DNA of 62,141 bases, the filler included, from Hausera hauseri (lineage: Eukaryota), in assembly GCA_046269625.1 (NCBI GenBank). It is 12 parts of 12 records of this genome, joined end to end, with 100 filler letters (N's around TTAATTAATTAA, not from the genome) between each part and the next. Parts side by side here need not be neighbours in the genome. Positions count along the whole stretch, not along the records: positions 52,605 to 57,859 come from JBJURY010297834.1; 11 more parts are not named here. The stretch is one strand, 5' to 3'. Within the stretch, counting starts at the first letter, position 1, and the number at the start of each line of letters is the position of its first letter. The notes beneath the pieces were generated by a model. That model was given only the letters and a program-made list of their open reading frames with translations, searched no databases and was not told where the DNA came from. Of the stretch, positions 1,461 through 62,140 are shown piece by piece. The position numbers and the translations under genes are program-made.

Positions 1461-2030
1461 ATCGGGCGATTGCGATCCCAATATCGAGTTTAAACCTATA
1501 AAAAAACGGAATTGCTTCTGAGTTTAAAGGAAATGGAATTGGAAGGCATTCCAATTATAGAGGAAACAAATATGAATTATGAAAATTATAAACTATCTAA
1601 ACCTGCAGGTTACACAAGCGTCACTGATAACAGTCCGATGTTTGCAATTGACTTTGAAATGGTTGATTGTTACGTTGAAAATTTGAAACGAAACCAAAAG
1701 AGATTGGCCTCACTAGCAATAGTTGATGAAACGGGAAAATCTGTTTACTTTACGTACGTTAAACCGCAGGACTTCATTGTCAACTCTTTAACTCCGTCAA
1801 CAGAATTACCCCGGAAATTTTGGAAAATGTCACAAAAATATTGGCTGATGTCCAACGAGATTTAGATGATATTTTACCATCGGATGCAATTTTGGCTGGA
1901 CATTCGATTAGAAATGATTTGGATACTTTACAGCTATTTCATCCGTACATTATTGACACGTCGACAATATTTAGTTTGTGTGGTAAACGGCAAGTTAAAG
2001 TTGGATTAAAGAATTTAACGAATATTTTCT
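1455..2030 (+). pseudogene. REXO5: Intronless fragment of DEDDh RNA exonuclease (REXO5/REXO1-like), frameshifted near 1795 and cut before ExoIII
   Basis: SPMFAIDFEMV (ExoI DxE), YVKPQDFIVN, ILAGHSIRNDLDTLQLFHPYIIDTS (ExoII). Confidence 0.7.
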
Positions 2031-2397
2031 TATTTTTTCTATTAAAAATCCTGAACGATGGAATTGACGGTATTGTCGGCGTGACTTGTGTTTATCCCAT
2101 CGATTTGGTGAAAACTTGATTACAGAACCAACAAGAGGGAATGCGAATGCATAAAGGAAGGTTTGACTGTGCAACGAAGACGTTTAAATCAGAAGGATTT
2201 TTTAAAATGTATAGTGGGAGTGGTGTTAATTTGTTGTTGATAACGCCGGAAAAGTCGATCAGATTGGTCGATAAAGATTTCTTTCGATATTTGCTGAAAG
2301 CAGAAGGAAAAAAATTACAGCCATTTCATAAAATGTTACCGGTGGTGGTGCTGGTACGTGTCAGATTATCGTTACGACTCCAATGGAATTGTTGTTA
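2031..2397 (+). pseudogene. SLC25A22: Intronless fragment of mitochondrial glutamate carrier (SLC25A22/18-like), with a stop at 2117 and a frameshift near 2340
   Basis: GIVGVTCVYPIDLVKT*LQNQ, KSEGFFKMYSGSGVNLLLITPEKSIRL, then in another frame GGGAGTCQIIVTTPMELL. Confidence 0.75.
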
Positions 2398-2714
2398 ATA
2401 TTGTACAAAATACCCGAGAGTAAGTTTTGCGAGTATTAGGACTGGGCCAAATCTATAAGTCCTCCTTTCGCCATATATAGTCTGACTTTGAATCTGTTCT
2501 GTGTTCTGATGATAAAGTTAAGCATCTTCATTTGCCTTCTGCAACCGGTCTCTTGTTAGTTTCACCAGGTATTGAATATGGACAATTTGCAGGTGAAAAT
2601 TCCATAGTCTAGTTTCTGCCCTGTTTATAGGAATTTGTTAAAACATTAGTTTTCCCATGGTATGAAATGACAAAAGGCTAATGATCCTGTAAACAACCGC
2701 TTATTGGTTTCGAT

Positions 2715-22130: not shown

Positions 22131-22313
22131 TTTATACCTGGTCGTCCTTGTAGTTTGCCGTACGTGATTCTTTTCCATCAATCCTTCCAGGGAAAAAAAT
22201 CCTGTCTTCATGGAGGCTCTCGTTTTGACTTTCTGTAAATCGCAGATCTTCATTTCTGTCCCCAAACGTTTCCTTTTTTATGAACCTCCGTACCTTTTCC
22301 TCTGTTCTTTCCT

Positions 22314-37169: not shown

Positions 37170-37975
37170 TATAAAACGATAGTTTGATGATGGAACACGA
37201 TGGAACAAGTTTTACTGAATAGAGTCCCGAACTTTTTTATCCATTCATTAATAGACACGGGGTTTTTACTGGCCAATTTATATGTTAGTTCATCGGTCTC
37301 CAATTCACAAAATGCGGATTCTGGAAATCTTTTTTGAAGGTTATGAATTGTCGTTGAAATACGGACACCAGTGATATTTTGGAAATCTATAAACTTCGCA
37401 CTGGATTTCGGGTCTTTCAAATCTGATGATTTGATTCAAATTAATTTGATGATTTGCTTGTGAAAATTTTACTTTTGGCAGCAATTATTTCATTTTTTGA
37501 CATTGTTTGAACAGAGTGAAGATAGTACAACAGCATTTGTTGAACCCTTTGTTATATTACTTATTCAAATCTGTATACCATAGCTTGTGATGAATAACAT
37601 CTAAATCAAATCGTCTTTTTTTGCCGATTCGGAAATAAAGTATGCTGACTTAATTTCCGCAATTCACCCGAGAAAGTTGTTTCGGGTGTTTGAACAGATG
37701 GATCGTCTTGTTTTGATATTTTGTCAAGATCTAGTCCTTCATTAGTAATATCACTACGTTTATTTGATTGCAAAGTCTGACTGGAAAATGCTGAAACTGG
37801 TGTTACAGTTTCTGATGTAGAAGTATGAGTTTGACTGTTGGTGTAATCGTCTTCTAATGTTGGTGAAAGATCTGAAAGCTCCTTTTTGGATTAATATTGC
37901 ATTCTTGGGGAAGATAATGAATACACTTGTCATGACACGTTACTTTACAATCAAAACATTTAAGAATTGAAGATC
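37170..37975 (-). pseudogene. Intronless host-gene fragments: C1 domain (~37890-37970), Ser/Thr-rich segment, PH-domain C-half (~37210-37420)
   Basis: LKCFDCKVTCHDKCIHYLPQEC; FIDFQNITGV..FCELETDELTYKLASKNPVSINEWIKKF. Confidence 0.65.
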
Positions 37976-38116
37976 CGTTTGGAGGTGATCGATTTTGACA
38001 GGACCCGGCGAAAGAGACCGGCAAGGCCCGAGGCATGGGACGCCACCGAAGCGACGACAGGCGCCCGACGTCGCCCGGCCATCCGGCCGCAGGGCGTACA
38101 AAAGGTGGGCACCACA
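37976..38116 (-). repeat. GC-rich LTR 5' cap related to 57090-57147
   Basis: TGTGGTGCC...GCGGCCG...CGGTCTCTTTCGCCGGGTC..AAAAT. Confidence 0.65.
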
Positions 38117-38506: not shown

Positions 38507-39115
38507 TTATTCATGGAAAATACGATAATCAACACCATCCTTTGTTATAGCCCTAATACGAACAACACCACCACTGTGACCATCTCTACTTATTGCCAGG
38601 AAAACAGCCTTACGCACCATTTCTATACATTCTTCCTTATTCATATTTTCTCTGTATTCATTGTCCAAAAACCCATAAATGAAAGTACTACCCGATCCAC
38701 TGATTGCCACTGATTCTCGTTGCAACATTCCTCCAAGTGGAATTGAGTAAAGTTGACCACCTTTCACGTCATCATATCCACCTACAATTATCCCAGCAGA
38801 CAATCGATCTCTATATTCATAACAAAGATTTTTGAAAACAGTTGCAGCATGCAGAACAGTTGGTTCGGTATCAAATTGCATGGCATGCAAATTGAGGCGG
38901 TATTTTACTATGTCTGCCAATGCCTGAGTATCGGCTGCTGAACCTGATCGACAACAATAGATTGAATCTCGGAGTTTTGTCAATTTATCACTGACTCGAT
39001 TTGAAATATACGATCCTCCAGATGTTCTTGAATCGGCCCCAATTACTACACCACCATCGAATGCAATGGCAACTAATGTTGTTCCCATACTGATTGGTTC
39101 TGATGAGTTGTACAT
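38507..39115 (-). CDS. PSMB6: Proteasome subunit beta type-6 (beta1), 202 aa, intronless
   Basis: Propeptide ending MG|TTLVA (catalytic Thr1), GADSRTS, CRSGSAADTQ, SGSGSTFIYG, RDGHSGG; ATG at 39115. Confidence 0.93.
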   Translation of the reverse strand: MYNSSEPISMGTTLVAIAFDGGVVIGADSRTSGGSYISNRVSDKLTKLRDSIYCCRSGSAADTQALADIVKYRLNLHAMQFDTEPTVLHAATVFKNLCYEYRDRLSAGIIVGGYDDVKGGQLYSIPLGGMLQRESVAISGSGSTFIYGFLDNEYRENMNKEECIEMVRKAVFLAISRDGHSGGVVRIRAITKDGVDYRIFHE

Positions 39116-39979: not shown

Positions 39980-42880
39980 TTGACGAGCTCTGGTGTCCAA
40001 TATATAAGCTTTTTCTTCGGCCCTGCTCCTAGTTGAGCGAAAGGAGCAGTTAACTGACTGCAGTGTGGGACGTATTTATGGACAAAATGTAAAGTCCCAA
40101 GAAAACTGCGCATATCAGTAGTGGTTTTTGGTGTCTCTATGTTTCGTAGCTGATGGATTCTACCAGGCTCTGGACTGTGACCGTCAGGTGTGATGACGTG
40201 GCCAAGGAAATGTGCCTTTTTCTGAAAGAAGGAACATTTAGAAAAGTTCACTTGCAAATTGTGGTTGTGCAAGAGTTGGAAAACTAGTCTGAGATGTTCT
40301 TCGTGTTGTTTGGGTGATGCAGATGCGACTAGTATGTCATCAATGTTTGTATATAAAAATGGCAAGCCTGAAAGAACTGAGTCAATGTGCCGTTGGAAAG
40401 TTTGTGCTGCGTTCCTTAAACCAAACGGCATGAATGCGTATTCGAAAAGACTGTAAGGTGTTATAATGGCCGTTTTTGGTATATCTTCTGGTGCTACCGG
40501 TATTTGGTGGTAGGCTTTTTCGAGATCTATGGTTGAATAAATCGTAGTCTTGTATAACGAATGCAATATATCCTTAATCAACGGTAGAGGATAAGCATCC
40601 ATGGTAGTGATATTATTAAGTTGTCAATAGTCGCCGCATGGACGGAACGAGCCATCTTTCTTTGGGACGACGTGGAGTGGTGATGCCCATGGTGATTTAG
40701 AGCGTTTTATGATGCCGGCTTGCTCGAGTGCAGAGAATTCCGCTTGTACTGCCTGTCGACGGCGTGGTGAAAGTGGGCGGAGTTTCTGTTTAACGGGCCT
40801 AAAGTTTTCTGTGACGATGCGATGAATCGTCGTGTTAGCCGGTCGAAATTCTGGGTCTTTTTTATTGTGTGAAAACAAGACTTGACTAAGTATTGCTGCA
40901 TTTCTTGGCTAAGCATAGTAAAGGATGTTTTTGTCACGGCAATGGTTTGATTGGACTTAGCATGTGAAATGCTAGAGATTGAATCGTCTAAATCGTCCTT
41001 GTGAACGCTTTTTTGTTTCTCTGTTACTGAACTGTAACAAAATGTTTGATTATTTATATGGGTATTAATCGCGTCCTTATTTGCGTTAGTTGAAGGTTCT
41101 TTTAATATCGATTTTATAAGTGAAATAGGTTGCGTGACTTGTTGGTTATTTAAAGAGGTGGGTTTTGTTGGACTGCTCTTGATGATCTGACGTTGCCTAC
41201 AATCTACAAAGAGGTTGTAGAAAGATAGGAAATCAGATCCAAGTATTGGCGATTGTGTCGGCAACGATGAATGTCCAATTGAAAATGTCGGGGAATGATG
41301 GTTACGTGAATGAAACTTTGGATGTGCCAAAAATGTGTAAAGCTTGGCCGTTTGCCGTGTATAGTTTGATGTTAGACGGTGAGATGGATAGTGTTTTGAT
41401 GGATGGTGGTAATGAAGAAACAGTAGCTTCTGAGTCAATGCGAAAGTTGATTGGTTGATTTGAATTGGACGTTAAGGAGGCTTTTAATGTAAAAACAGCG
41501 TTTGTGCGGCTGTAGCAATTACGAGGGTAGCCTTTGCCAGCCTGCGCCGGAACATCTGGCGGCTTTATCAGTTTTTTGGATAGAAGGATTTGGTGACTCA
41601 GGAGAATTACGAATGGATTGGTTAAGTCGACTGGAAAACGTAAAACCGTCGACGCACTTCAGGGTTTTGTTGCCGAACCTATTATGGTAAATGCAAACGA
41701 TATCGGATTTTTGGAAGGCTTATGTATAGAATTTACACCCAAGGCAACATTTGCTGGATTGGTTTTTCAATTTATTGTGATAATAGCACATCATAGGTCG
41801 AGTAGGGGACCTAGCGAATCTAGAATTTTGTGATGAGGCACGGCTATGATTAGGTGTGAATCGATTTCGTCGCAGCATGGATAACTTGTCCAGTTTGGAA
41901 GTTAGAGCAGAAATGGCTTGGTGTATTGCAGTGTTTTCAGCTCGGCGAGTGTTTATTTGATTACTCAGCGCTAAGATTTCATCATTGTGTGGTGTTATAG
42001 GCGGTTGCAATGTGGCTTCGACGATAGGAGTATGATGTGTATTTAGTATATCGTAACTTTTATCAGCCAGTTGTGCTAACTTTTCTAACGTAGCGGTATC
42101 TTCAAATACTGTTAGTAAAGCGCGTATTTCCTTCGGTAGTGATTGAAGGAAATATCTGCGCAATAAATCGGCGTTATTGGTTTCATTTACTCCAAACTTG
42201 CTTAATTGAGTCAAGGATGTTTGTAAAAATTCAGATGGTTTTAATGTGCCTATTGTGTTTTCATTGAAATATTTCTGGATGATGTTACCAGATAAGGTTC
42301 GGTGAGTTTTAGTACGGCGTTGAAAAGTGTTTCGTATGGGTCTACTGTCTGAAAAATATCGGAAAGATTTGGTAGTAGTGACTTAAGGTTGGCTGGTAAA
42401 AGTATTAATAGGCTATTGGCTTTGAAGAAAGGATCACTGACCTTATTTGATTTTAACCACTGCGCATGGAATTCTAGCCATGTACGACTGGAGTGTTGTT
42501 TATTTGTAAAATAGTCGACACAAGTGAAATTGACCGAAGAGGATGCTGCAGGTGGGACTGAAGGAGACTACTTTAGCGTAACATGTATGGTGGGAATGTC
42601 AATAAAATCTTGTTGTTCCAGAGAAGATGCTTTTGAGTCAGATTTGCCTAGTAAACATTAATGTGCAGCTAGTATAGGCGTCAAAGATGAGCGTGTATAG
42701 TTGGTAATAATATCGGATTGCTGCACAAAGAATCCGTTAAAGCTGAGACGGAAATTAGTCTGTAATGCTTCTCGTTGTAGAGCCCCGAACAAATGTGCGA
42801 TGGTTGCTGTTTGGTGTATATAGTGTGTATGTGTGTTTATTTTTAAGTGAGAGTTAAAAAAGTGAAGTTTGCAAATATGT
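39980..42880 (-). mobile_element. Ty3/Gypsy (Mag-like) UBL-gag, protease and RT; degenerate; same family as 52640-57859
   Basis: SSRTWLEFHAQWLK, LLRRYFLQSLPKEIRALL, CYYHNK..C..GC, SPWASPLHVVPKKDGSFRPCGDY, MPFGLRNAAQTFQR, NIDDILVAS. Confidence 0.92.
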
Positions 42881-43284
42881 CGGGTGTGCAGATATGTTTA
42901 TTTTGTAATAGAAGAGAAATAAAGATGAAAGTGTGTGTCATTTTAGGGGTACAATGCGTCACCGGGGACAAGGTCGCACCAAAAGTCCCTATATCGTAAT
43001 GACTGATCTTTTTAACCAGAGGAATCGGAACGGCAGTCGAGCACGAGATCATTGGGTTTATTTGTTGTACATCACGTAACCGAATTGTTATTGACTGAAT
43101 AAAATAAGGTTGAGGTGGAATAAACCGTTTTTGAAATTTTGAAATTATCTTTATGGTTCCGATAGTCGATTTCGAAGTTTCGGGTTTGTTTATTCTAAAA
43201 TTCGATCGAAAATATTCAAAAACAGTTAGAAATTCAGCAATTTCAACATGGTGTAAATATTCACGGACATATATATATATTTAG

Positions 43285-43480
43285 CAAATGCTGAATATTT
43301 CGTCTGAAAATAGTTCCCTTAATGTATATATCTCCTTTTGATGGCAAACATTTTTCAGAAATAACATTTAATAGTGTTGATTTTCCACAACTATTCGGTC
43401 CAATAATAGCCGTAATGTTTAAATATTTAAAAATGGTCGATACATTACGTGGTACTGTTTTTCTCGGTGAATTGACTGTA
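43285..43480 (-). pseudogene. ABC transporter NBD fragment (Walker A)
   Basis: My translation: RNVSTIFKYLNITAIIGPNSCGKSTLLNVISEKCLPSKGDIYIKG. Confidence 0.8.
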
Positions 43481-44649
43481 AAATACTATTATACTGTCTC
43501 GACGACTCACCAATTTTATTGCCTGTCGATGAGTATTTTTCCAACGCCCTATAGGTATTTTCTGTCGCTTGCTCTTATTTTTTTAAGAAATTTGCGAATC
43601 ACATATTGTAGTTTGAAATCGGCGAAATTTCGAAGTAAAATCGGAATTATGTATATGCTGTGATGTGTTGATTAAATGGTATATTCAACCTTAACGTTAA
43701 ATGATATGGCTGAGTTTGTATTGACTCTGGTCACGATTAGCAAATACTTCACTAATGATTCATTGTTCTCAATAAACAGCGAGGTTTGGCCAATGTCAAA
43801 TATTGGGGAGGTACTTGAAATATGCATAAAATAATTTGCATTCTTGCCTAATCCGTATGTATAGGGATGGAGAATTTGCGATGTTAAAACGATGGATAAA
43901 TAGTACGGTAAGTTATTTGGGCTTATTCGAATTCGACAATGACCACTACGTATAATGAAATAGGATGTACGTGTATAACAAAATTCAAAAGTAGTGGCTG
44001 CCGAGAATGTATTAAAATTGTTAGAGTTTTTGATAAATTTGGGCACAACTTTTTATTTCCAATATATTTACTATATGCTACTGCAAAATATATAATAGTC
44101 TTACATAGTTCTCCTTTACTCAAAGCCACTTTTNNNNNNNNNNNNNNNNNNNNNNNNNNNNNNNNNNNNNNNNNNNNTTAATTAATTAANNNNNNNNNNN
44201 NNNNNNNNNNNNNNNNNNNNNNNNNNNNNNNNNTGTAAGAAATAAGTAAAATAGCTGTTGTAGTTTCGTAAAACAGTGCAGCTTGAGCTAGTTTAGTAAA
44301 TATGGTTTAGAACCAGTTTTTTAAAGAGAATAGTTTGTATCGGCCTTTAAAAAGGTACAGGCCGATGTTGGGTCCTCTGGAGTCAGTACTCCTTTACTTA
44401 TCATTCGTTTATGGAGGAAACATTCGAATTTCACATTTGTGACTTTTAGGTCAGACACAGTAATGATAAGAGAGAATGGAGTTGACTGTAAGGTTATGTC
44501 TAGTTCTTTGATGACTTTCTTTTATACTATTTGTGTGGTCACTATTCTTGTGACGACATGTATGATGCTGGTCTTATTAGGGTAGTTGTTGTTATTTCTT
44601 TTGGAAATCTTTCTATTATATCTGGTCCCTCTGATGCTTTTGACCATGT

Positions 44650-49258: not shown

Positions 49259-49259
49259 A

Positions 49260-51720
49260 GGCAGATCAAGATCAGATTACTGATTATGCTGTCTTTCTTG
49301 CTAGGGGTGTAGGTTTTCTTTTTGCCTGAACAACAGGTGCATAATCTTGTACCGTTGTTTGAATGAAACTATTGATCCATCTCTGCACTTTACTTACCTT
49401 TCTACATTAGTTGTCAATGCTCTTGTGGCTATTCCTATACTTTTTCTATTTCCTTGGTTTGAGTTCGAACCATTCATCACCATTATTTTATACAGGAGAT
49501 ATGATGTAGCTGTTATAATTTTACTTCTAGACATGCCTGTTCCCATCATTCTAGATAGTACATCTCTCTTGTATCTCACTTATTTTCTCATCTATAGGAA
49601 TATCTGCAAATTGCTCACTGATTTTTATTTCATTTATGCTTATCTGCATCAGTGAGTCTGGTATTTGTAAGTTTGTATTAAACTCAACAAACGCATTGTG
49701 CATTCTAGTTAACAAAGTTTGCAGTAATGTTGGCAATGAAACATTACCTTCATCATTCTCATCTTGAGTTATTAATAATCTTCGAACAACTTCATCGTCT
49801 CTTGCTTTTCTGCCTTTTAGTTGCTAGAGTTTTGTTATGCCTTTGGGTCTACCTCGATTTTTTCTATCAATTTGAGTCTGTTCTGATATAGGAATATTTG
49901 TTTCAATTCCTGTCTGCTGAACTTCATAATTTGGTTAAGTTTCTTATATCTTTCTGCCTAAATTCAGTAAGGGTTTCATCATTTATTTTTTGCCTAATTT
50001 GTCTGAAGGCAATTGCAAACAGGATCATATCTGGTTTCCCGCATACGTACTTCGCATATGGTTTCGTAACATAAGTGTCCGTTTATAAAAACGTAGTTCT
50101 AGCTCTCCTCGAGACTGGATTACCTCGTTAATCTTGTTTTTCAATGTAATTATCGTATATGACGACTTCATCCTTATAGCACGAAGGTCCTGATTGTGCA
50201 GTTTGAGAGTAACTACTATTTGAGGCTTTTTCCGACCGGTCTAACTCTTTCTGCATACCGATAAATTATATATCGTACAGGGTTTTGATGTGGACTTATC
50301 AGCAGCATATATTAGGAATAAGTTTAATAAATTAACACTGTTGATAGCTAACCGCAGGCAACAATAACATCGAAATAACCTGTCTGAATTGTTTGTCATC
50401 AATTAATTCTTGGTTAGCATAGCTTGATATTTTCCGAACTATTTCTGTACTGTTTTGATCCAAATCCACAAATAAGGTTTCTCCCTATTGTGCTGCTATT
50501 TTGACTTTCTTGTTTCTTATTCACTTTATCTTTTCACTGTTTATTTTTCATGCTTCCTTTACTTCCAGAAGGCAAATAGGGAATTTTTAAATGTTCTCTT
50601 ATAAAAGGTTTATCTTTTCTTTTGGCCTTTTGCACTTCAGCATCTGATTCTGAGGATAGATCCTTTCAAGTCTGACTACGGGAACAATAATTGAATTATT
50701 GTTATTCATTTTGTGTCGTTTTTCACAAATTTCTTGTTGCTTTAATTCTAACTATAGCACCTTTAATTCACCTACTTTATCTTCATCATCTATCATATTC
50801 GTTTTATAATCCTTCAATTTAGCTCTAACCTTTTGCTGCAGCTTTTCTACAGTATCCTCTGGTTCGGTATCCGGTTTCCTGTTCATTATCTGTAACAGAT
50901 ATATTACCAATCATCTCAATATTTTTCTTTTTCATGTTTGGCTGCCCTTCGTTAGGACAAGAACGGGCCATGTGTCCATATTTCTGACAGGCAAAATATA
51001 ATTTTTGTCCATTCTGATTAACCATTGGTTTCCTCATTGCTAGTTTTTGAGGCTGACTTTGAAAAGTAACCATCTAAGGGTGTCCTGGCCGGTTCTGAAA
51101 TTTTTTCAATTTCTCATCATTTTAGGAGGCCTTTGAACATTTTCAAGCCTTCCATACTTAACTTCAATCTTTCTGACTTTACTGACAGCTTCTTTATAAG
51201 TGTCAGGGTCAACAACACTAATATAATTCTGAATTTCTTTTGTTATTCCGTACAAGAACTGGTCTTAGAGAGCATCTTCTCTTATGTCTTCATCTGTATC
51301 GGCTGTAAGCCCATTTCTGAAGGACACATGCATATTCTTGCACGGTATCGCCTTTTCGCTGACGTCTGTTGAATTTCCCAATTCAACCTTTTCCTGACGG
51401 ATCTACTATGAGTTTTTCCTCCATGAGCTCTAAGGCTATCCCAATCAGCTTTATTCTGATCCTCTACTTTTGCGTAAGAACTGAGTGCTATCTTTGAGAT
51501 GAAGTGGAAGGCGTTTTATCCTGAGCTCGTCTGTCCATCCAAAGCTTTCTGAGTACATGTGGTACTGCATCAGGAATTTGCTGTAGTCCTGGTCTGGTTT
51601 GCCTTTCAATTTGTTCATCGACAAAACAATTGTGCATTCCTACCTAAGCTAGCACTTAATCCTAAACTAGACATCTGGGGTTTTTCTTATTCAGACCCGG
51701 ATGGTCTTCTAGCCGAGTCC
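49260..51720 (-). pseudogene. Copy B of gag-linker-UBL-AT-hook-helical region
   Basis: Collinear with 15200-17700; FACQKYGHMARSC; RKNRGRPKG. Confidence 0.8.
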
Positions 51721-51805: not shown

Positions 51806-52639
51806 GTATTAAGTTTAAAAATCTGACAGTCTGGGTCTCGGCCTTAAATTTAAAATTTACTTTATCTAATTAACAACCTGTGGGTTACTAAATGTTTTGA
51901 TCTTATTGTGTGAGTTGATCACTAGAAGGCACACTAGCGATACTCTCCTCTTATTTATCTTGATTTTAAACACTCGAACCTTAATGGACGGGATACCAAA
52001 GTCTGCCCTTAATTTTAGATATATGGTTTAATTCTACTCAAAAACAATTTAGTTTAACAAAAATATTATGATAACAGCTCGCTAACAGGATAAATAAATA
52101 AACAAATGAATGAATGAACAGATGATACTCAAAATTGTCACTTATTTCTGACAAATATTGTTTGAAAATCGTAATTAGTAAACTATACTCGAACCTAAAT
52201 TCCCAATTCGATTATTATACCATAATACATATATCAGGTGATATTCCGGATTTCAATCTCCTTCAAAATAATATTTGCAAAGGTGGCAGGTTGTACTCCG
52301 AGATTCAATATGCTAAATTAGCTGTGTTTCCTGTTACCAAATATATGTAAAGAAAATAAGACAAGGTCAAACTTTTAATCTATGGTAAAAATGATTTATA
52401 TAATCTTATCATTGGAAAATATAGAATAATCAATTACATCCATTATGCATTGTTTGTCAAGCATTAAACAAAATTAAGTATACTGTTGTTTTTAGTTACA
52501 TTCANNNNNNNNNNNNNNNNNNNNNNNNNNNNNNNNNNNNNNNNNNNNTTAATTAATTAANNNNNNNNNNNNNNNNNNNNNNNNNNNNNNNNNNNNNNNN
52601 NNNNATGAGCTAGCCTTGGACTGGTACTTTGCGTTATAG

Positions 52640-53779
52640 ATGCATATGGGATTGTCTACGGCATATCGTCATCGTAGAATCGACAGCCTAAAACACATTT
52701 CCTTGCATCTCTGCAAAATTTGTTATGATAAAAGCACATTATTTTATCATCTCTAGATTTAGAACGAGAAGAGTGCCTAAAAACCTGCGATTACGAGAAA
52801 TACGATTTTCGCTTCCTCTAGGCACGGATAAGTCACGGAGTTGGGCTGTGATCGCAGAAATTGCTTGTTGGTGGGTATCAAATTGTTTCTGCATTATGTT
52901 TAGTTGTTGTGCAAAAAAGTGTTGTCTGGCAGTGTGTAAGCAGTTTGCTGCGACTACTGGCTGCGAGTTATTAGACTGCAGAATATCAAAGATTTGTCTG
53001 CCAATAAGGCGACCTTTTCGAGAGCAGTAGAGTCATCTACTACAGTAAGCAAAGCTCGAATAGAGGTTGGCAAAGATGAAAGGAAATACCGATGAAGAAG
53101 ATCGACACTGTTTGTGGCAGTAACGTCCAAAGAGCTCAATTGAGAGATGGCAGTTTTAAGGAAATCCGATGATTTTTTTATTTCCGATGGCGTGTTCGTT
53201 AAAATATTTCTGGATTATGCTGTCGATGGAAGGGTCGGTGATATGTAGAACCGATTCATACAGCATATCATACAGGCTTGAAGAAGAGAATGTCAGCCAG
53301 ATTACTGATTTGCTGTTTGATGTTGGCTTGGAGTAATAGCAGCAAACTGTTAGCCCGCAGAAAGGGATCTGTAATATGATTAACTTTAAGCCATTGTAAA
53401 TGGAACTGTAGCCAGGTACGACTAGAATTCGTCTTGTCTAGAAAAAAATCCGTGCAGGGGAGATTTGGAGAAGTTGTTGGTGTGGTGTCGACAGGACGAC
53501 GACCAGATTTAGTCTTTGTTAAGTGTTCGATAGAAGGATCAAGGTCTGATCCACCACGGATGCGAAAATGGACAGTGAGAGTGATGGAATATTTCTCGGG
53601 TGCAAAAGATGAAAAAGAATCGTAAGGTTGCAAAGTTAGACCGTTGTGCATAAGATAAAAATTGGAGGAGCCAAAAAAAGGACCATTCAGTATAGAGAAT
53701 ATGAGCTGTTTGTTTGTGCGCAACCCTTAATGTGTGGATATGTTTAGTATTAGTAAAGATTAGAAAAGAAAAGGGACAT
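52640..53779 (-). pseudogene. Gag with an N-terminal ubiquitin-like domain ending RIRGG (53550); frameshifted
   Basis: FLIFTNTKHIHTLRVAHKQT..NFYLMHNGLTLQPYDSFSSF..TLTVHFRIRGG|SD; SSRTWLQFHLQWLK; CFYHNKFC..KCVLGC. Confidence 0.8.
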
Positions 53780-54305
53780 GGCCCAACGGGGGCGGGCACT
53801 CTCGGTCCCTCAACGAGAGAATCTTTTGTATGAGTGATCATCGTCGTAGGACGACCAGTACTTCGATACATTGTTAGCGGTAACAACTTCAAACATTCAA
53901 CTTTTTTACTGGATGCGAATCGTACTTTTGGTTTCAAAATGGTGGGTCGCAAATTGAATTCACCAATTGATACAGTTGTCATATTTTTGTTTAAATATGA
54001 ACGGTGGATTAACAGGCAGCTATTTTTGATGTGTAACATATTAATCCAACCGTTGCTGTAGCCACTGGCCATGAAACAGGATTTTGAAAGATGGACAGGT
54101 GAAAAACCGATGCGATGTGAACGTATAGATTAAGATGGCAGTCGGCTTCAAAAGATCAAAAGTCAATTTCGCGAAATTCAATTTTGCCAGATGATAGTAC
54201 AATTAAAACTGGTTTGTCAAAATCTGAAACATAAACGTCGGGCAACCAGTTTAAAAAAGTAATTGAGAAAGACAGACTAATTACGCAGATTAGTCTGTCT
54301 TCGTC

Positions 54306-56204
54306 TCATAATCCTATAGTGCAGTCGTCTGTAGTTGCAGAAATAAATCGTAATAATCCAAATAAGGCGTAGGATTTGAAAGTATCCGTTTTATGTATAC
54401 GATTATTCAAATATGTTTGAAATAATTCGTTAATGTAATTAACTCTCAGATATGACTTACCATTACTGTTTAATATTGTACTCGCTCTGAAGTTTCTTGA
54501 CCCTATCATCCATTCCAACCAAAATGTTGACTGATACGGACGAGTAACGTTGTATGTGATCGGTTTTAGAGAACACGACTTTTCAGTATTAATTGATTCT
54601 TTTAAGTGATTTAAGTTTGATTGAAGATGTTTGAAAAGAGACGTAAGACAATCTGTAATATTTCGAAACGACAATAAGTCTTTAGGCCTTATGTTTGGTT
54701 TCAGTGGTTTGCAAAACTTGACTGTTTCTACGTCCTTTTCGGTTAATAAATTAAGTAGTATGCAGAACATTAAATCCGAAACAGGAAATTGTCTAACCGA
54801 TAAAATTTGTTTAGTACATTTAAAAAATGAATCAAAAACGCTCAATTCATTTGTGCAATTCAATCCATCATTGCTTATTATGTTTTTAATGTCACTGTGA
54901 TCACAATAATTGTAATAAATAATGTAATCTATAACTGCTGTTCCAAATGTATAAAGTCCGGGAATATCGAGTGCTGAATAAGTCCTTACACCATTTAGAT
55001 CGTTTATGTAAGCAGTATCAACGCCAAACTGTTTGTAATGATCTTTAATATGAAAGTCCAATGCAAAAAAGATGATATTCCTAATGAACATTTGTTGATT
55101 TTTAGATTTACCAGGATTGATAGCAATTATGTTACCTCTGAGAACGTTTATAGCTTTATTAGCATGATTATTTAAAATTGGTAAAACATAGTATGGTGGT
55201 TGAACATCACCGATTTCATTATTGGTTATAGTTTTATTTTCATTTAATATTCCATTGTGCTGCGCTACAATGACATCAGATAAAAACTTTTTGGTATATG
55301 TTTTATATTCTTCACACATTATACTAAAACTCTCTTTGATAGCAATTCTGTCTTTGGATTTTAAACAACTAGAAAAATTATAATTATTGAGATTTTGATG
55401 AATAATTATTTCACAATATATCACATTTACCTCTTCTTTATCGTTATTTGAATCCAAATCATGAAACAAATCACTGCTTTCAAACGCCAATCCCGTACAA
55501 AAATTAGCTGAATTAACACCGTTTTGAATTTCTCGAATAAGACATTGAAAAAAGTTATTGAACGTTTCATAGCTTTCCATATCGATTGCATACACACTTG
55601 TCATTTCGGGGTGTGTTACGTGCGGATATACAATGGTCATTAGAATGATATTATTTCGTGTCTTTTTATTTTCGTACAGTATTGCTATTTCATGGTTTAA
55701 TGCTTTCTTCAATGGACAGTAATACTCATACACATTGTATATGAATTGCTCACAATTAACTGCATCGCCTACTGCAACGTCCTCCGCCAATTTAACAATA
55801 TCATAATGCCCATTATCCATTTTCTGAAGAATTCTCAATGGTTTGGTAAAGGCAAATTTTTCAATGACAAAATTGTAGATGTCGCTAAGAGTTTTGCTAC
55901 GAGAATAGCAACAAGTTACTTTGTTTTCTTTTCCACAAATAGAAATAGTAATGTTCAATGGTTGAACCTCAACGGTGTAACTATCGTGACTGAGTATCAC
56001 AAATCTTTCGAAAAGTTCTTGGTTATCACAATCCAGTTTGTATGTTTTCACAAGATATTTCCAAACTTCTTCCGGTACCAAATCGTAGTGATCATTCAAC
56101 AACATATCACCATTAACTTCTTTTGTTGCATCAAGCAATTTGCTGTTACTAATTGGTGGCAAATTTTTTCTTGTCATCCGTAACAAATATTTAAGTTGAT
56201 TCAA
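54306..56204 (-). CDS. Chimeric 632-codon ORF (first ATG 56177): USP4/11/15 DUSP-UBL, phosphagen kinase, CLU, BACK and probable further fragments
   Basis: PPISNSKLL..YDLVPEEVWKYLVKTY..VEVQPL; PLKKALNHEI..VYAIDMESYETF; GNIIAINP..QMFIRNIIFF..NDLNGVRTY..GLYTFGTAVIDY; NIISNDGLNCTNELSVFDS. Confidence 0.75.
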   Translation of the reverse strand: MNQLKYLLRMTRKNLPPISNSKLLDATKEVNGDMLLNDHYDLVPEEVWKYLVKTYKLDCDNQELFERFVILSHDSYTVEVQPLNITISICGKENKVTCCYSRSKTLSDIYNFVIEKFAFTKPLRILQKMDNGHYDIVKLAEDVAVGDAVNCEQFIYNVYEYYCPLKKALNHEIAILYENKKTRNNIILMTIVYPHVTHPEMTSVYAIDMESYETFNNFFQCLIREIQNGVNSANFCTGLAFESSDLFHDLDSNNDKEEVNVIYCEIIIHQNLNNYNFSSCLKSKDRIAIKESFSIMCEEYKTYTKKFLSDVIVAQHNGILNENKTITNNEIGDVQPPYYVLPILNNHANKAINVLRGNIIAINPGKSKNQQMFIRNIIFFALDFHIKDHYKQFGVDTAYINDLNGVRTYSALDIPGLYTFGTAVIDYIIYYNYCDHSDIKNIISNDGLNCTNELSVFDSFFKCTKQILSVRQFPVSDLMFCILLNLLTEKDVETVKFCKPLKPNIRPKDLLSFRNITDCLTSLFKHLQSNLNHLKESINTEKSCSLKPITYNVTRPYQSTFWLEWMIGSRNFRASTILNSNGKSYLRVNYINELFQTYLNNRIHKTDTFKSYALFGLLRFISATTDDCTIGL

Positions 56205-56683
56205 CCGAAATTACACCAACACTATTTCTTCATTTGATGATTCATTTGTTAATATTCTGACACCAATTTATGATTCCGTAACGTAGACAAAATGCATTTA
56301 AGAAAAGAAAATCCGAAACACCAAGAAAACTGTATTAATCAAATTCAATTTTTTTGTTATTAAAAATCTATATTCATCAATTACATATTTTCTAATTTAT
56401 GTGTATAATACAAACCAAACCTTATGAATTGTAACCTTTCATTGTAACCTTACAATCAAACAAGCATCAATCACACACAAAAAAATCATCTAATTCAATA
56501 AGAAAAAGAACGAATAAGAAAACACCCGAAAACTAAAATTGGCAACTATTGAATGTCCGTTACTGGTTCAAAAATTACAACGCAATTTCGTCACTATCAT
56601 CTTGCTTGAGATTGAAATAATTTTTTGGGATAGTGAAGATTTGATTGTTATCATATTGTTCATTATCTCCCTTTGGAAGAGGG

Positions 56684-56776
56684 AATATTGGAGAAATGAG
56701 AAATGACGTAATCCATTCTTCACCCTTTAAAGGATGGAAATATTGGAGAAATGTGAAATGACGTAATTCATTCTTC
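56684..56776. repeat. 38-bp direct repeat, each unit with CRE-like TGACGTAA
   Basis: 56684-56721 and 56739-56776, two mismatches. Confidence 0.8.
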
Positions 56777-57089
56777 TATTAATTTGCCATCAAAATTGTT
56801 GGGTATTTTGGAAATTGTAAAACACATTATGAAATGTAATATCAAAATAACCGCAATCTTCAGATAATAGTTCTCATCAAGATACTTTACACTGTACGTC
56901 GAATCGAGTTCAAACAGTAATTTGTTATTTTAAAATGTTCACGAAAATAAACCGAATTTGTTTTTTGTACTTGTCATTAAAGCACGTAGTGCAACGTAAC
57001 AAATTATTTTGAAGAATACAAAATCCAATATAAATGATCCAATAGAGATCTTTAGATTTAACGTTCCATCTGATTTATTTAAACATTAA

Positions 57090-57159
57090 AATTTGAATTT
57101 CTCGACTCCGGCGAGGAAAAGACCGCGCCCACGGCCGCGGCACCACATCACCTCCCCCC
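57090..57159 (-). promoter_or_regulatory. Polypurine tract (57148-57159) and start of LTR (TG at 57147)
   Basis: GGGGGGAGGTGA|TGTGGTGCCGCGGCCG just downstream of the integrase end. Confidence 0.8.
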
Positions 57160-57317
57160 GTGGCAGAATTGAAACTATGTAATAAAGAAAAATGAAGATA
57201 ATACGACTTACAACAACGAATCGCAACAGGAAATAAAGCTTGGTTTCTATTCAGTCTTAGTACGGGTTAGGCGTTGTGTGCCATCAAAGAAGTTTTCTTT
57301 GCTGTACGTGTTAAACG

Positions 57318-57859
57318 TTACTCTGCGTGGCTTACTTGATAGATTTGTAATGGGTTGTTGAACGATTTTTGTGATGGAGATGATAACGAATGTGGGTCAA
57401 GCGAGAAAGGAGATGAAGGTTGTGAGCATGATGACGGAGAGTGAAGTGAGATGGATGGAGGACATGATGATAATTGAGTGTAATCGAGCAGTGATTGCTT
57501 CAGTGGCGTAAAATCGTTTAGAAAGTCAGTTGAATTGCTAGCTGAGTCTGAATTAAGTGTAGAATTGCTATCTGGAATGTCGTCAATGAAGAAGGAAGGC
57601 TTCAGATTCGAAATATGGACGTTGCACGGTTTATCTTGGCGTAAGATTGTTGCTGTGTGAGATGAAAGATTCAACAGTTTGTACGGGCCAACATATTGAG
57701 GTCTAAAACCAGAAGGTGATTGATCTTTTAACCATACAAACTTGGCGGAGTATAAATCCTTCGGAATGTAGGATTTGTTGTGATTAAAGAGGCGGCAGAA
57801 TGAATCTGAGCTGACCTCGACGAAGTGAGATTGTGCCGCACGAATGTTTTCGTCTGCAG
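57318..57859 (-). pseudogene. Ty3/Gypsy integrase C-terminus (GPY/F module plus Ser/Pro tail)
   Basis: SYIPKDLYSAKFVWLK..RPQYVGPYKLL..NVHISNLKPSF. Confidence 0.85.
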
Positions 57860-58625: not shown

Positions 58626-61529
58626 TTAATAAAAGTTACCTCTAATTAATCTCTCAGCGTCAATTACTGAAAACAGCCAATATTTTAATTTTTTCAAAAA
58701 TAGTTTTAAAGGAAGCTCTGACAAACCACTAGGAAGCGTGTTGAATAGCCTCGGGGCAATGAAACTGTAAGTAAGGGAGATAGTGGTCCGAGAGGGCCGA
58801 GGAACAAAATAAGACATACCGCTTCTCAAATTGCTGGCGTAATCAGTTATTGATTGACGTTTTTGGTCACCACTACGTATAAAGAACATCCTTAGCACTT
58901 TATACACATATAAGTGTCTTAAAGGTAGTACATTGAGATCTTTAAAGATTGCAAAGGAAGGAGATGTCCTGGGTCTTTTATTAATAATTCTGACGAAGTG
59001 CTTTTGTAATAGGATTAAGTTTTTCATGTGACTTATATACGTACCCCCCCAAAACTCAATCCCATATTCCAACCTAGATTGAATCAAAGATGTGAATACA
59101 TTTTTAAGGATCAACCTAGGGCATAGGTCACGCAAGAAATAAAATTTCCTGATATATGACTGTAAACAATTATTTAATTCCCTGCAATGATCCTCCCAAC
59201 TAAGATTTTCATCCACATTTAAACCAAGATATTTTATTCTGGAGGAATAGGCTACCCCTGGACAGTCACAATTGGCCTCCAGATTCCGACATTTACAAGT
59301 CATTTGATGGCATGGAATAATATTGTAGTTATTTACTGTATTTATTCTGCTTAGATGGAAAATAATATACTTAGTTTTATTGAAGTTAATTAAGAGTTTA
59401 TTTTGGGCACACCATTCATTGATAATCACTAAATCACTAGAAATGCCCGACAGCACCCCTTCCACACAGGTACTCGAGTATGAGAGAGCAACATCATCGG
59501 CATAAGCTGTTATTTTTCCCTCGGTTTTTAAAGTAAAAATATCATTAATGAAAATACAGAAAAGAATCGCCGCCAGTACACTTCCCTGAGGTACGCCATA
59601 TCTAACAATACCAAAGCCGCTCAAATCTCCCTCCACACTCACACATTGTCTTCTTCCCGACAAGAAGGAAGTAAACCAGTTCAAGGGCATGCCCCTCACC
59701 CCAGCGTGGTACAGTTTATCCAATAAGATATCAATGTCCACCATGTCAAAGGCTGCCTTCAGATCCACAAATACACCCCCAGTCTTATGGCCTTCATTTA
59801 TGTCAGAATACACGCTGGAGAAAAAGGAGTTAAGAGCATCAATAGTACTCTTGCCACTCATAAACCCAAACTGTTTAACATTGAAAAAGTTGTTACTGTC
59901 CAAGTATGATATCAGGCGCTTTTTCATGATCTTTTCTATAATTTTCGAAAAAACTGATAAGAGAGAAATTGGTCTGTAATTTTCACATTTACGACGGTCA
60001 CCCTTCTTATATATAGGAATCACCTTTGCTACCTTCCATCCCTCAGGAAAATCTCCAGATTCAAAACTTAAATTTATTATAAACTTAAGAGGGGATACTA
60101 TATACAAAAAGGTCCTTTTCAGAAAATCAGAACTGACCCGATCAAGACCAGGTGATTTTTTGCTTTCAAGGGAATTGATAATAGTTATAATTTCATTTTC
60201 GTTAGTAGGAGTAAGATAAAAAGAGTTTGATGGGGCCTCCAAGCGATTTATATAATTTATATTTAATATATTAAGTTTATTGGAATCAGCAACGGAGAGA
60301 AAATGTTTATTAAATATTTCAGCCTGTTCTAAAGGGTTAGTTATAATTTTATTATCATCTTGCAGCTCCAGATTACCTCTATCTTTAATTTCGCCTATTA
60401 AATTTTTGATAACAGACCAATGCTTAGATGTATTTTTACTTTTAAAGTTGAATAAATTATTATAGTAAGCATATTTAGCGGTTTTTAATTCTGTATTTAA
60501 TTTGTTTCTATATCTAATGAAATGATTTTTTATATCAATATTATTTGGATGTTTTATCAGTAATTTGTATAAAAATTTTCTTTTTTCAATTTTATTATAT
60601 AAGTAGTCATTCATCCACGGCTGTATTTTTTTATTTTTATATTTGTCTGTTTTCCTGATTAGTTCTGTACAGAGACGTACGTACTTTCCAAGTCTGTCAG
60701 AAAAAAGTTGGGCCGCTGTAGAAGCGTTCCCACATAGTAATACATCAGTCCATTCCTCAGCCTCCAACAGGGGGCATAATCTATCGTAATTAATCATACT
60801 TATTGAAAAAGGTTTGTCAGCTGAGAGGGGAGTGCCAGGAACCATCTCCGTATTCACCATCACCTCCAATAAGGCGTGATCAGTAATACCGATCTGTCTA
60901 ACATTCATAGATATATCGAAAGTATAGTTTCTAGATTTTTTGAATCTAACAAAAATGTGATCAATGCATGACGACCCAAAACCATCCCCTCTTGTAGCTA
61001 TGTTAATATCATTCATCAAAGACAATCCATTCGCATACATCATATTCATGTAATTTTCAATTACATCACTATTCCCTGCTAGGTCCAGGTTCATGTCCCC
61101 GGCCATCAGGAGATTATCCACGCGAATATCATCCAAAATGCTATTCAATTCATCAATAAATACAATTGGGGCAACCCTGTGCAACCGATACACCAACAAA
61201 ATATGAATTTTAATTGATTTAAAGACACACGTTACTACAAGACAGTCAGCAGACGTCATTGAAGGCGTGTGTGTTAAAATATCAACATTTTTCTTTGCAA
61301 AAACAGCAACCCCACCCGACCTGTAACTATTATTGCATTTAAAGAAGCCGTTATAACCTGACAATTGATACAACAGTCTCTCACTATCATTGATCCAGAT
61401 TTCTGTTAAAAGTAACAGATCCGGTAAGCCACTGTAAGTGGTAGTCAAAGTAGCTATGAAATTATCAAAATTAGCCCTGAGGCTACGAATGTTTTGCATG
61501 ACACAAACTATCCGCCGGTTTTCACACAT
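58626..61529 (-). CDS. LINE ORF2: APE endonuclease plus reverse transcriptase, 967 aa, intact
   Basis: QNIRSL, TEIW, GDMNLD, IDHIF, TDH; KSPGLD, NYRPISLL, DLKAAFD, GVPQGS, YADD, KYLG. Confidence 0.96.
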   Translation of the reverse strand: MCENRRIVCVMQNIRSLRANFDNFIATLTTTYSGLPDLLLLTEIWINDSERLLYQLSGYNGFFKCNNSYRSGGVAVFAKKNVDILTHTPSMTSADCLVVTCVFKSIKIHILLVYRLHRVAPIVFIDELNSILDDIRVDNLLMAGDMNLDLAGNSDVIENYMNMMYANGLSLMNDINIATRGDGFGSSCIDHIFVRFKKSRNYTFDISMNVRQIGITDHALLEVMVNTEMVPGTPLSADKPFSISMINYDRLCPLLEAEEWTDVLLCGNASTAAQLFSDRLGKYVRLCTELIRKTDKYKNKKIQPWMNDYLYNKIEKRKFLYKLLIKHPNNIDIKNHFIRYRNKLNTELKTAKYAYYNNLFNFKSKNTSKHWSVIKNLIGEIKDRGNLELQDDNKIITNPLEQAEIFNKHFLSVADSNKLNILNINYINRLEAPSNSFYLTPTNENEIITIINSLESKKSPGLDRVSSDFLKRTFLYIVSPLKFIINLSFESGDFPEGWKVAKVIPIYKKGDRRKCENYRPISLLSVFSKIIEKIMKKRLISYLDSNNFFNVKQFGFMSGKSTIDALNSFFSSVYSDINEGHKTGGVFVDLKAAFDMVDIDILLDKLYHAGVRGMPLNWFTSFLSGRRQCVSVEGDLSGFGIVRYGVPQGSVLAAILFCIFINDIFTLKTEGKITAYADDVALSYSSTCVEGVLSGISSDLVIINEWCAQNKLLINFNKTKYIIFHLSRINTVNNYNIIPCHQMTCKCRNLEANCDCPGVAYSSRIKYLGLNVDENLSWEDHCRELNNCLQSYIRKFYFLRDLCPRLILKNVFTSLIQSRLEYGIEFWGGTYISHMKNLILLQKHFVRIINKRPRTSPSFAIFKDLNVLPLRHLYVYKVLRMFFIRSGDQKRQSITDYASNLRSGMSYFVPRPSRTTISLTYSFIAPRLFNTLPSGLSELPLKLFLKKLKYWLFSVIDAERLIRGNFY

Positions 61530-61684
61530 TTGAGAGCAAAGTAAGATATATTTTTCTCTTAATTTCTTTTATCAATATATAAATAAGAGTGAAGATAAAT
61601 AAAAGTTCTACTATAACGATATAGTTCCATAGTTCCCTAGTATATGTTAAAGTAAAAACAAAACTGACCCATCCTCCGAAATCC

Positions 61685-62140
61685 TCAGTTCCCACTCTCC
61701 ACAGACCTCCCATAGCCCCTCAGATCCTTCTCAGTTCTCACACACACCGGTGGGGTCTTATTATCAACTCTCACCTTGATATTTCCATTCCAATCAAGCC
61801 ACACAGATTGAAGGTATCCATCCGCCTTCAAGCGTCGAGCCCTGTAGAATAGACCGCTCCTGGAAGGCGCCAAAGGGACGTTGAGAAATACCGGACTGCT
61901 AAACGGAAAGCCCAGATGATGCGTAGAAAGCCTTATCTTCCTTTCTTCCTTATCTTCCTTATCTTTCCTGCGACGAGACTGAAGAAATTTCTCTTTGTCT
62001 CGCCTTCTAACAAATTTGACAACTATACCTGGAGGAACCTCTGGGCGCCTGTGGTTAACCCGAAGCCGGTGACACGCATCCACCATCTCCTCTGTAATCT
62101 CACATCCCACCGCCCTTCCAACACCCCTTACAATATCCAT
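61685..62140 (-). CDS. LINE ORF1 C-terminal part (RRM/CTD, FP25K-like)
   Basis: DACHRL..PPGIVVKFVRRRDK..VFLN..VW..NGNIKVR. Confidence 0.85.
   Translation of the reverse strand: MDIVRGVGRAVGCEITEEMVDACHRLRVNHRRPEVPPGIVVKFVRRRDKEKFLQSRRRKDKEDKEERKIRLSTHHLGFPFSSPVFLNVPLAPSRSGLFYRARRLKADGYLQSVWLDWNGNIKVRVDNKTPPVCVRTEKDLRGYGRSVESGN

Follow-up and report, generated by a model that had tools for sequence, protein, structure and literature searches.

A one-frame mosaic of host-gene pieces ahead of a probable ubiquitin-like domain and gag in an LTR retroelement of Hausera hauseri

The element and its ends

The window, a 62,141-nt stretch of Hausera hauseri DNA (GCA_046269625.1), consists of short contigs joined by N-padded linkers, and the element at issue lies on the minus strand within the contig at 52605-57859 (about 5.3 kb), for which the neighbouring contigs are unusable as flank. 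Read on that strand it opens with the end of an integrase, followed by a purine tract and a TG start; after some 0.9 kb of non-coding sequence come a mosaic of host-gene pieces, then a probable ubiquitin-like domain (UBL), and finally gag. The integrase side carries the following features.

57280..57857, minus: C-terminal end of the integrase, truncated by the contig end, GPY motif at 57689
57148..57159, minus: polypurine tract, from sequence; the TG start adjoins at 57147
56270..57147, minus: 5' part of the LTR (from the TG start through some 50 nt of GC-rich hairpin sequence into AT-rich non-coding DNA), assigned by position behind the purine tract
56681..56776, minus: two 41-nt direct copies, 93% alike and 55 apart (repeat family D1)
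56255..56265, minus: candidate primer-binding site A with a TGG start, from sequence

An earlier note on this DNA had read an integrase end, a polypurine tract, a TG cap and enhancer-like repeats here, and all of these are borne out at the coordinates just given; the 41-nt copies are enhancer-like by position only. The integrase end has no Pfam match, and the depth of read run X1 over 57533-57859 is 17,000-20,000, uncalibrated against any single-copy gene. Within the LTR 5' part the hairpin lies at 57141-57121, and a frame test places the whole part within the shuffle range (64/200). The candidate primer site may resemble a tRNA-Leu-type site; against it stand the lack of a depth step there and its difference from the CsRn1 tRNA-Trp motif. 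Three candidate primer motifs looked up in the literature returned, among the matches listed, unrelated primers only, and the whole window holds no tRNA genes. Searches for the LTR 3' end and for a target-site duplication located neither. The cargo bay is somewhat more likely to begin inside the LTR than behind a primer site.

A single frame of pieces from unrelated genes

Behind the non-coding part comes the cargo, whose pieces are listed in the direction of reading.

54306..56210, minus: stop-free frame of 634 codons with host-gene pieces, first ATG at 56177
55761..56165, minus: piece 1, DUSP and UBL of a USP4/11/15-type deubiquitinase, by homology to P0001 and P0002
55308..55718, minus: piece 2a, the first of two domains in a phosphagen kinase-like protein (P0004 residues 55-191, 36%)
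55248..55313, minus: piece 2b, from the same donor some 214 residues further along, where its second domain begins (P0004 residues 406-427)
55179..55208, minus: piece 3a, upstream motif of Clueless/CLUH, by match to long CLU proteins
54924..55154, minus: piece 3b, CLU core, interrupted near 55013 by a gap of 4 codons, by homology and an alignment of 64 homologues
54726..54902, minus: piece 4, BACK domain of a BTB-Kelch protein (Pfam PF07707)
53780..54725, minus: cargo without recognisable match, from frame tests

The 634-codon frame has no stop where 51 are expected per frame, and holds four Pfam families from unrelated genes (DUSP, E 6.6e-7; ATP-gua_PtransN, 5.3e-8; CLU, 3.6e-12; BACK, 6e-4), so that the host fragments earlier said to be stitched together here are indeed joined, and in one frame. 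Piece 1 matches P0001 at 52% over 135 aa and P0002 at 62%, and also USP11 in the PDB (E 0.016), where piece 2a finds arginine kinases (E 9e-4). Piece 2b scores 67 against its P0004 residues, a value reached by 0/500 shuffles, and overlaps piece 2a by 2 codons. For piece 3a, 18 of 49 long CLU proteins have their best upstream match 199-213 residues ahead of the core; the core itself, piece 3b, is 70% alike to P0003 and 59% to P0010, and piece 4 scanned alone reaches E 1.2e-4 with PF07707, above the curated cut-off. The joins that are identifiable on both sides are all in frame (six of six), for which the chance is (1/3)^6 = 0.0014.

Every recognised piece is in sense on the element's strand, as had been claimed before, and antisense translations of the three loci gave no stretch out of 37 that reaches E 0.04 in Pfam, with two matches at 0.045. 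P0002, a relative's predicted protein, contains a 15-residue read-through stretch that is missing in the cargo, and this, read from protein letters only, is a hint of intron loss. Exon-skipped mRNAs are a possible source of the in-frame internal deletions.

Past the BACK piece the frame meets stops at 54306 and 54156 on its way to 54012, and a second frame is open from 54129 into the UBL. Database searches matched nothing in 53780..54725, and no relatives came up for the last 200 residues of the mosaic, for the whole mosaic as query, or for gag and RT as queries. Three loci which the searches for relatives did return were discarded as spurious, L003 being bacterial and L001 phage-like by its ORF map.

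The probable ubiquitin-like domain and gag

53550..53780, minus: probable ubiquitin-like domain, GG end at 53550, frame switch near 53680, from a PDB match and likeness to the second copy
52690..53549, minus: gag with several frame switches and a CHCC knuckle at 52736, by comparison with other copies

The domain ahead of gag is probably ubiquitin-like, a weak call made from sequence on its match to the SDE2 chain 8ro1_X in the PDB (weak at E 0.019) and on its colinearity with 42759-42637 of the second copy (29% over 41 aa). Neither Pfam nor the Atlas matches it, and the second copy's UBL has no match in the PDB; the first half of the domain was assigned by eye, length differences at 53677-53678, at the frame switch, cannot be phased, and a single-sequence AlphaFold model of a UBL half is unusable (pLDDT 44). 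The GG at 53555-53550 is in frame with the N-terminal domain of gag. The frame switches of gag coincide with length differences from other copies. Of the UBL-gag read here before, gag is borne out, with its CX2HX9CX3C knuckle, and the UBL is the weaker part.

Related loci in the window

39980..44133, minus: second family copy with other cargo, a UBL remnant (42870-42637), gag (CHCC at 41788), protease and RT, by homology of gag and of an ABC piece
37170..38116, minus: possible LTR of a related element, with TG start, GC-rich block and a C1 piece at 38000-37893, from sequence and Pfam
1494..2436, plus: RNA exonuclease and mitochondrial carrier pieces joined in frame into an intron-free mosaic, from Pfam

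The second copy has a gag 53% identical to that of the first, an RT recognised as RVT_1 (E 3e-27), and in its cargo an ABC-transporter piece at 43446-43300 (E 8.6e-10); the UBL is common to both copies and the cargo differs. In this copy cargo and gag are both broken, and the cargo again runs towards the UBL: its 263 codons contain 6 stops where 19 are expected, there are 137 open codons ahead of the UBL (0/20,000 shuffles), and the path costs 7.0 against 16.3 (0/200 shuffles). Its UBL has another ending, without GG and with stop codons there in its present state.

The other two loci fare unevenly. The C1-domain piece reaches E 6.6e-6, but the DNA of 37170-38116 aligns with the LTR start of the main element at a score of 27 against a shuffle maximum of 31; none of seven DNA comparisons among the three LTR-like loci exceeds shuffles, and behind the start at 38116 the candidate 4-bp duplications, five in all, do not go beyond chance. 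The mosaic at 1494..2436 is convincing as such (exonuclease E 3.4e-10, carrier E 4.7e-7), and no LTR link was seen for it. Among the loci offered by the earlier note as related, 43080-44133 belongs to the family, 37170-38116 is a possible relative, and 1455-2397 is a mosaic for which no LTR link was seen.

This free-standing mosaic, together with the failure to find an LTR 3' end, a primer site or a target-site duplication, could be taken to mean that the cargo is a Pack-MULE, a Helitron or a cluster of processed pseudogenes lying between or inside independent LTR insertions. We regard this as very improbable: terminal inverted repeats, expected of a Pack-MULE, are absent, the longest inverted pair being 32 nt at 72%, and the intron-loss hint, the same place ahead of the UBL in two copies, and depth edges that are graded and not sharp also speak against it.

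Read support and depth

Two independent read runs cover 30/30 bins of the contig. Read support was found for four of the seven joins, each bridged by contigs from at least one run with at least 31 letters on each side, and around the CLU-BACK join a variant form recurs in both runs. The joint 54852-55012 skips 159 bases in the read contigs and is not counted as in frame because the letters between are not known; the joint 54931-56352 was dropped, having only 20 letters on one side. Depth in X1, uncalibrated against a single-copy gene, goes from cargo to gag through 60, 119, 233, 445, 1083 and 4466, and from cargo to the TG end through 48, 173, 658 and 2506.

Over 54953-56269 the X1 contigs are 99-100% identical, and the contig differs from every one of them at several places below 54850 and hardly above. 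Sibling copies may thus have been joined near 54850, and with the permuted order (integrase before gag) and the fragmented assembly this gives some room to the idea that the pieces were captured neutrally in the ordinary way, or that the contig is an assembly chimera, with the long frame due to luck or to the assembler. The bridged joins, the CLU-BACK variant present in both runs, the six joins in frame and the low cost of the frame path on this contig (3.5 against 33.7 in shuffles) argue against it, and it seems improbable to us as an account of the frame.

What keeps the frame open

From 56210 to the start of the UBL the path costs two stops and one shift, and directly upstream of the UBL there are 117 open codons (P 0.0009). 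The stretch 54308-53780 alone is open within the shuffle range (22/200), and its agreement with the UBL frame is only a 1-in-3 chance per copy, since one open frame is what every coding piece has. Overall the cargo forms one reading frame towards UBL-gag, and this points to constraint from translation.

Within the CLU piece, flanks left out, some 4-5 of about 24 positions conserved in 80% of the 64 aligned homologues have changed. Neutral drift to that extent should have left 6-10 stops where there are none (P 0.003 or less), and if the CLU change were only 10% the same test gives P 0.01-0.04. Since conserved residues have drifted, it looks as if the open frame and not the protein is under selection. 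The drift also bears on whether the cargo is self-mimicry that makes small-RNA silencing costly for the host, as the earlier note had suggested. All recognised pieces do come from conserved housekeeping-type genes, and in maize captured pieces feed a siRNA conflict (PMC13317346); mimicry, however, requires nucleotide identity to the donors, and the estimated drift of the CLU piece is 8-11%; nor does this account fit the joins, as it neither predicts nor needs the in-frame joins seen here, so that we give it little credence.

More has to be conceded to a reading in which the 634-codon frame is its own unit, a Bs1-like chimeric gene or an NMD-shielding frame of a non-autonomous element, kept open independently of Gag, with the UBL as older cargo. 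The frame has no breaks in 1,902 nt where about 8.7 are expected from the rest of the contig, gag and integrase included, with about 10 in 2,193 nt (P 2e-4, on a tally made partly by eye). The near identity of X1 contigs over 54953-56269 fits this too, as do the in-frame variants listed, three of five being silent among 40 of 443 variants. Conversely, all six X1 contigs spanning 54306 lack the frame-ending stop there, conserved CLU residues have drifted, and the second copy's cargo is broken with its gag and still leads into the UBL. We consider such a unit unlikely, albeit a serious contender. A frame that outlasts its own gag is explained under the UBL-bay model only by recombination or a mis-join.

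Relation to known elements

The CsRn1 clade (CsRn1, PwRn1, AgCR) is described in PMC2582038 with, among the members listed, LTRs of 146-368 bp and units of 4-6 kb, and with a tRNA-Trp primer site and a 4-bp target-site duplication. Likenesses are the CX2HX9CX3C Gag knuckle, which occurs twice in six frames of the window (52736 and 41788), the integrase GPY/F motif at 57689, and a TGT start after the purine tract, as in the clade's LTRs (TGT...ACA/AAA/ATA). In contrast, the members described there are compact and without UBL or cargo. A tRNA-Trp primer site sought from 57147 to gag with up to 3 mismatches gave nothing but a 3-mismatch match at 55972, the motif having 44 matches in the whole window against 48 expected; because both copies are decayed, the missing site only lowers the claim of membership.

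In maize, Bs1 is an LTR retroelement in which pieces of three host genes form a hybrid translated ORF (PMC13317346, PMC5131818), a single plant case with one piece out of frame with its donor; here there are at least four donors, six joins all in donor frames, and cargo that varies by copy ahead of UBL-gag. Tan et al. 2016 (PMC5131818) report animal LTR elements with sense, intron-free mRNA pieces, sometimes of two or more genes, acquired by template switching, the retrocopy being flanked by discontinuous element sequence. The sense coding pieces are alike, whereas here gag, protease and RT stay behind the cargo (in the second copy) and a shared UBL parts it from Gag. Burro, a giant gypsy element of planarians, also has host-like domains in ORF1, one of them ubiquitin/SUMO-like, yet its Gag comes first, has CCHC knuckles and is followed by whole accessory domains (PMC6431247), unlike the truncated and variable pieces ahead of Gag here. 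The probable UBL with its GG end ahead of Gag has counterparts outside retrotransposons: host deubiquitinases cut SDE2/FAU-type fusions after GG and free the downstream protein (PMC8013793), and cytopathic BVDV has captured ubiquitin pieces in mosaic insertions ahead of NS3 (PMC13517609, PMC13572447).

To call this a new system, as was done at first, was therefore an overstatement, LTR capture of several mRNAs and exon shuffling being published (PMC5131818; Bs1). Capture by LTR elements is known; a UBL-gated in-frame bay is not found in the literature searched. Serial capture by an LTR family holds up on two gag copies with different cargo, stepwise depth, the intron-loss hint and the lack of terminal inverted repeats; the notion of loose cargo gives way to one frame leading to UBL-gag.

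A proposed mechanism

The element may belong to a Ty3/gypsy family with CsRn1-type Gag and an ORF1 laid out as cargo, UBL-GG and Gag. Host mRNAs that share a particle with the RNA of the element would be added piece by piece upstream of the UBL through template switching by RT, by the mechanism given in PMC5131818. Because Gag would be read from the cargo's frame, only sense, in-frame, stop-free captures and deletions would survive, and such is the pattern of the pieces. A host deubiquitinase would cut after GG as for SDE2, keeping the Gag start constant, and the GG-ended cargo piece would possibly be destroyed after cleavage (both by analogy with PMC8013793). With Gag freed whatever precedes it, and the cargo perhaps destroyed, the cargo protein would drift and its frame stay open. 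The copy on this contig is dead, and the contig itself could be a recombinant, or sibling copies collapsed into one, hence the order integrase, LTR, gag.

That mRNA pieces were captured by template switching ahead of a cleavable UBL which frees Gag whatever lies upstream is the reading we prefer, at about even odds. The fuller idea of a ubiquitin-gated bay, in which Gag begins with a captured UBL that the host can cleave and that uncouples it from the upstream fusion, and the 5' end of ORF1 takes up mRNA pieces serially, filtered only for an open frame, so that each copy is a translated many-gene chimera, is put forward more tentatively, as a plausible case somewhat short of even.

Meaning for the family

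Retroposed fragments usually die, being out of frame or untranslated. If the ubiquitin-gated bay is real, its admission of sense, in-frame pieces that are translated with each round of Gag would make the family a standing source of multi-domain proteins, the origin of chimeric genes would become testable copy by copy, and a mobile element would be relying on a host deubiquitinase for its protein processing. If instead the frame is a Bs1-like unit of its own, animals would still have their equivalent of Bs1, assembled from at least four donors.

Anatomy of the element

Since the window is made up of 13 short contigs with N-padded linkers between them, only the contig 52605-57859 is informative here. 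Its minus strand does carry the order described in the earlier note, from integrase end through polypurine tract, TG cap and host fragments to gag preceded by a probable ubiquitin-like domain (UBL), and a host-gene mosaic in an LTR-element setting is real.

Features of the 5.3-kb contig
Before the purine tract, minus strand: integrase end with GPY motif (sequence)
57159-57148, minus strand: purine tract (sequence)
57147, minus strand: TG start of the LTR (sequence)
56265, minus strand: candidate primer site, TGG (sequence)
56210-54309, minus strand: mosaic frame, 634 codons without a stop (ORF reading)
56165-55761, minus strand: DUSP-UBL of a USP-type enzyme (homologue alignment)
55718-55308, minus strand: first domain of a two-domain phosphagen kinase-like protein (homologue alignment)

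The 0.9 kb behind the TG is no more open for translation than shuffles (64/200 shuffles) and this non-coding stretch holds two 41-nt copies, and the mosaic frame has 0 stops against 51 expected per frame. At 56228, just upstream of its first ATG, a 13-base tandem duplication absent from the window is present in both X1 and X2, sequencing runs from two studies.

Pfam finds DUSP, ATP-gua_PtransN, CLU and BACK in the mosaic frame, and homologues were drawn from a database of 1.84 billion proteins (best 150 of 162 matches). After the first kinase domain comes the start of the second, ~214 residues further on in the donor (0/500 shuffles), and then a Clueless motif, normally spaced ~205 residues before the CLU core (18/49 long homologues), the core itself, with a 4-codon gap, and BACK. 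Among the matches listed (150 of 162) no homologue spans two donors. For the Clueless piece the top match with a name comes from a tapeworm (60%); with a Burro-like family also present in the window, the host, an animal, is most likely a flatworm. Homology searches gave no identity for the last 140 codons, the very end of which looks WD40-like by eye.

Support for the joins

X1 and X2 each cover 30/30 bins of the contig. The joins were checked among the 16 records listed (of 16 + 3,222), with at least 31 letters on either side counting as bridging.

Joins of the mosaic among the 16 records listed
DUSP-UBL/kinase: bridged, X2
Kinase/kinase: bridged, X1 without any difference and X2
Kinase/Clueless: borderline support
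Clueless/Clueless: bridged, X2
4-codon gap in the CLU core: bridged, X1 without any difference and X2
Clueless/BACK: variant form only, X1 and X2
BACK/next piece: no bridging

The earlier note had made its reading depend on support for the joins; at least 4/7 joins are bridged, and the kinase/Clueless, Clueless/BACK and BACK/next-piece joins fall short. Some of these joins recur in sibling copies at ~88-95% identity, and so the mosaic was copied as a unit. Because no record among the 16 listed spans the whole contig, and because it departs from all X1 contigs (among matches listed) in several spots below 54850 but scarcely at all above that position, the contig may be a join of two sibling copies; the assembly's own source is possibly X1 or X2, not both.

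Probable selection on the frame

Joins known on both sides are all in frame (6/6; chance 0.0014), a figure that would be milder if exon-skipped mRNAs gave rise to the two long internal deletions. Of 30 CLU columns that 80% of 64 homologues conserve, the cargo departs from 11 (median 3, maximum 10); once the gap and five columns at the flanks are set aside, five misses are left, one of them common to the closest homologue. From these missed columns follows 8-11% nucleotide drift, with 6-10 stops expected and none seen; part of this drift, being measured against homologues, may have arisen in the host lineage. In the DUSP-UBL piece, 56/76 columns common to two homologues are retained (reverse tests 56/73 and 56/63), counts that do not separate drift from lineage rate. 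Judged from sequence, the open frame looks to be under selection and the cargo protein hardly so. Breaks number 0 in the mosaic frame and ~10 in the remaining 2,193 nt of the contig (P 2e-4; tally partly by eye), and an unbroken frame beside a broken rest counts against a simple reading of that frame as leading to gag.

From mosaic to gag

The mosaic frame seems to lead to gag. Its first stop, at 54306, is common to 0/6 X1 contigs spanning the position; the same frame then goes on to 54012 with one more stop, and from 54129 another frame stays open as far as the UBL, making two stops and one shift for the whole path. Directly ahead of the UBL, 117 codons are free of stops (P 0.0009), whereas 54308-53780 taken whole is no more open than shuffles (22/200). 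The first half of the UBL is a by-eye assignment; the second has SDE2 as the top of three matches at an E 10 cut-off (E 0.019), and its terminal GG at 53550 shares a frame with the gag N-terminal domain.

A second copy (44133-39980, minus strand) has a gag 53% identical to this one and a different cargo, an ABC piece. Its path costs 7.0 versus 16.3 in shuffles (0/200). The frame changes at an AT run, the change after that coincides with a 61-nt duplication, and 137 open codons precede a UBL remnant colinear with the UBL here.

Position of the cargo bay

On balance we place the bay, the cargo-holding stretch, inside the LTR. A primer site at 56265 would instead limit the LTR to 880 bp and put the bay in the element interior, and the TGG there has what we take to be a tRNA-Leu-type likeness. 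An LTR is expected to show more depth than the element interior; X1 depth, a rough measure, is 36-48 just upstream of the TGG versus 56-61 just downstream, and climbs smoothly towards the TG end and towards the UBL alike. AAA/ATA-like ends, as PMC2582038 gives for CsRn1 elements, also stand before this TGG. At the 38116 locus, a putative relative, the C1 piece starts ~120 nt behind the TG and no clear primer site was found; an intron-free proteasome beta subunit gene (38510-39112, Pfam E 2e-49) lies ~390 bp upstream of that TG on the same strand. In Ty1 the Gag frame begins in the LTR and crosses the primer site.

Other elements in the window

Two copies, 69% alike, of another gypsy-like family (14425-17613, and 48521-51619 with 47035-47724) have a gag that resembles the Ty3 capsid (E 0.002), followed at 15811-16224 by a domain of the ubiquitin family (E 0.013), and, at 47035-47724, a viral fusion glycoprotein piece (E 6e-12), a domain order resembling that of the planarian Burro elements (PMC6431247). 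At 1494-2436 an RNA exonuclease is fused to a mitochondrial carrier, in frame and intron-free; the fusion directly follows a 381-codon ORF without Pfam match (315-1460) and is itself followed by a piece of type B DNA polymerase. This is a second setting for mosaics, in which an LTR was not seen. An ordinary decayed gypsy element at 18956-23983, whose 232-bp terminal repeats agree at 88% and whose gag contains a 164-bp tandem triplication, showed no cargo and is a useful cargo-free control. A non-LTR element (58626-61568 and 61685-62140) has an unbroken endonuclease-RT frame of 980 codons, and a baculovirus FP-like domain is encoded in its upstream ORF. Decayed Polinton-like pieces (2753-6804, 27476-30969) hold domains of type B DNA polymerase and of endonuclease VII, with 66% likeness between 5061-6697 and 28866-30496, and an AT-rich RT frame at 31427-33276 (E 2e-5), Penelope-like by eye, is followed by 205-bp direct repeats (34650-35149).

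Capture and the proposed gate

LTR elements that capture multiple genes are already known, Bs1 among them (PMC5131818), and the present element works alike. It shares the CsRn1-type Gag but gave a negative tRNA-Trp primer test, and so is not filed as a CsRn1 member. Full-text searches of the open literature gave no description of a UBL-gated in-frame bay; subscription journals, repeat databases and genome-paper supplements may contain one.

The sense orientation of the cargo, a hint of intron loss in one piece from homologue comparison, and the mechanism of PMC5131818 suggest that host mRNA pieces were captured by template switching. Serial capture by an LTR element, as the earlier note had proposed, agrees with the sense pieces and the intron-loss hint, but the pieces share one in-frame reading path and are not loose filler. 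According to PMC8013793, deubiquitinases cut SDE2, FAU and TUG behind GG, and its authors conclude that GG-ended products are removed by the diGly pathway; BVDV acquires ubiquitin pieces in front of NS3, often as mosaics (PMC13517609). By analogy with such cleavable fusions and insertions, the UBL may act as a gate, at which cleavage behind the GG would free Gag from the upstream cargo.
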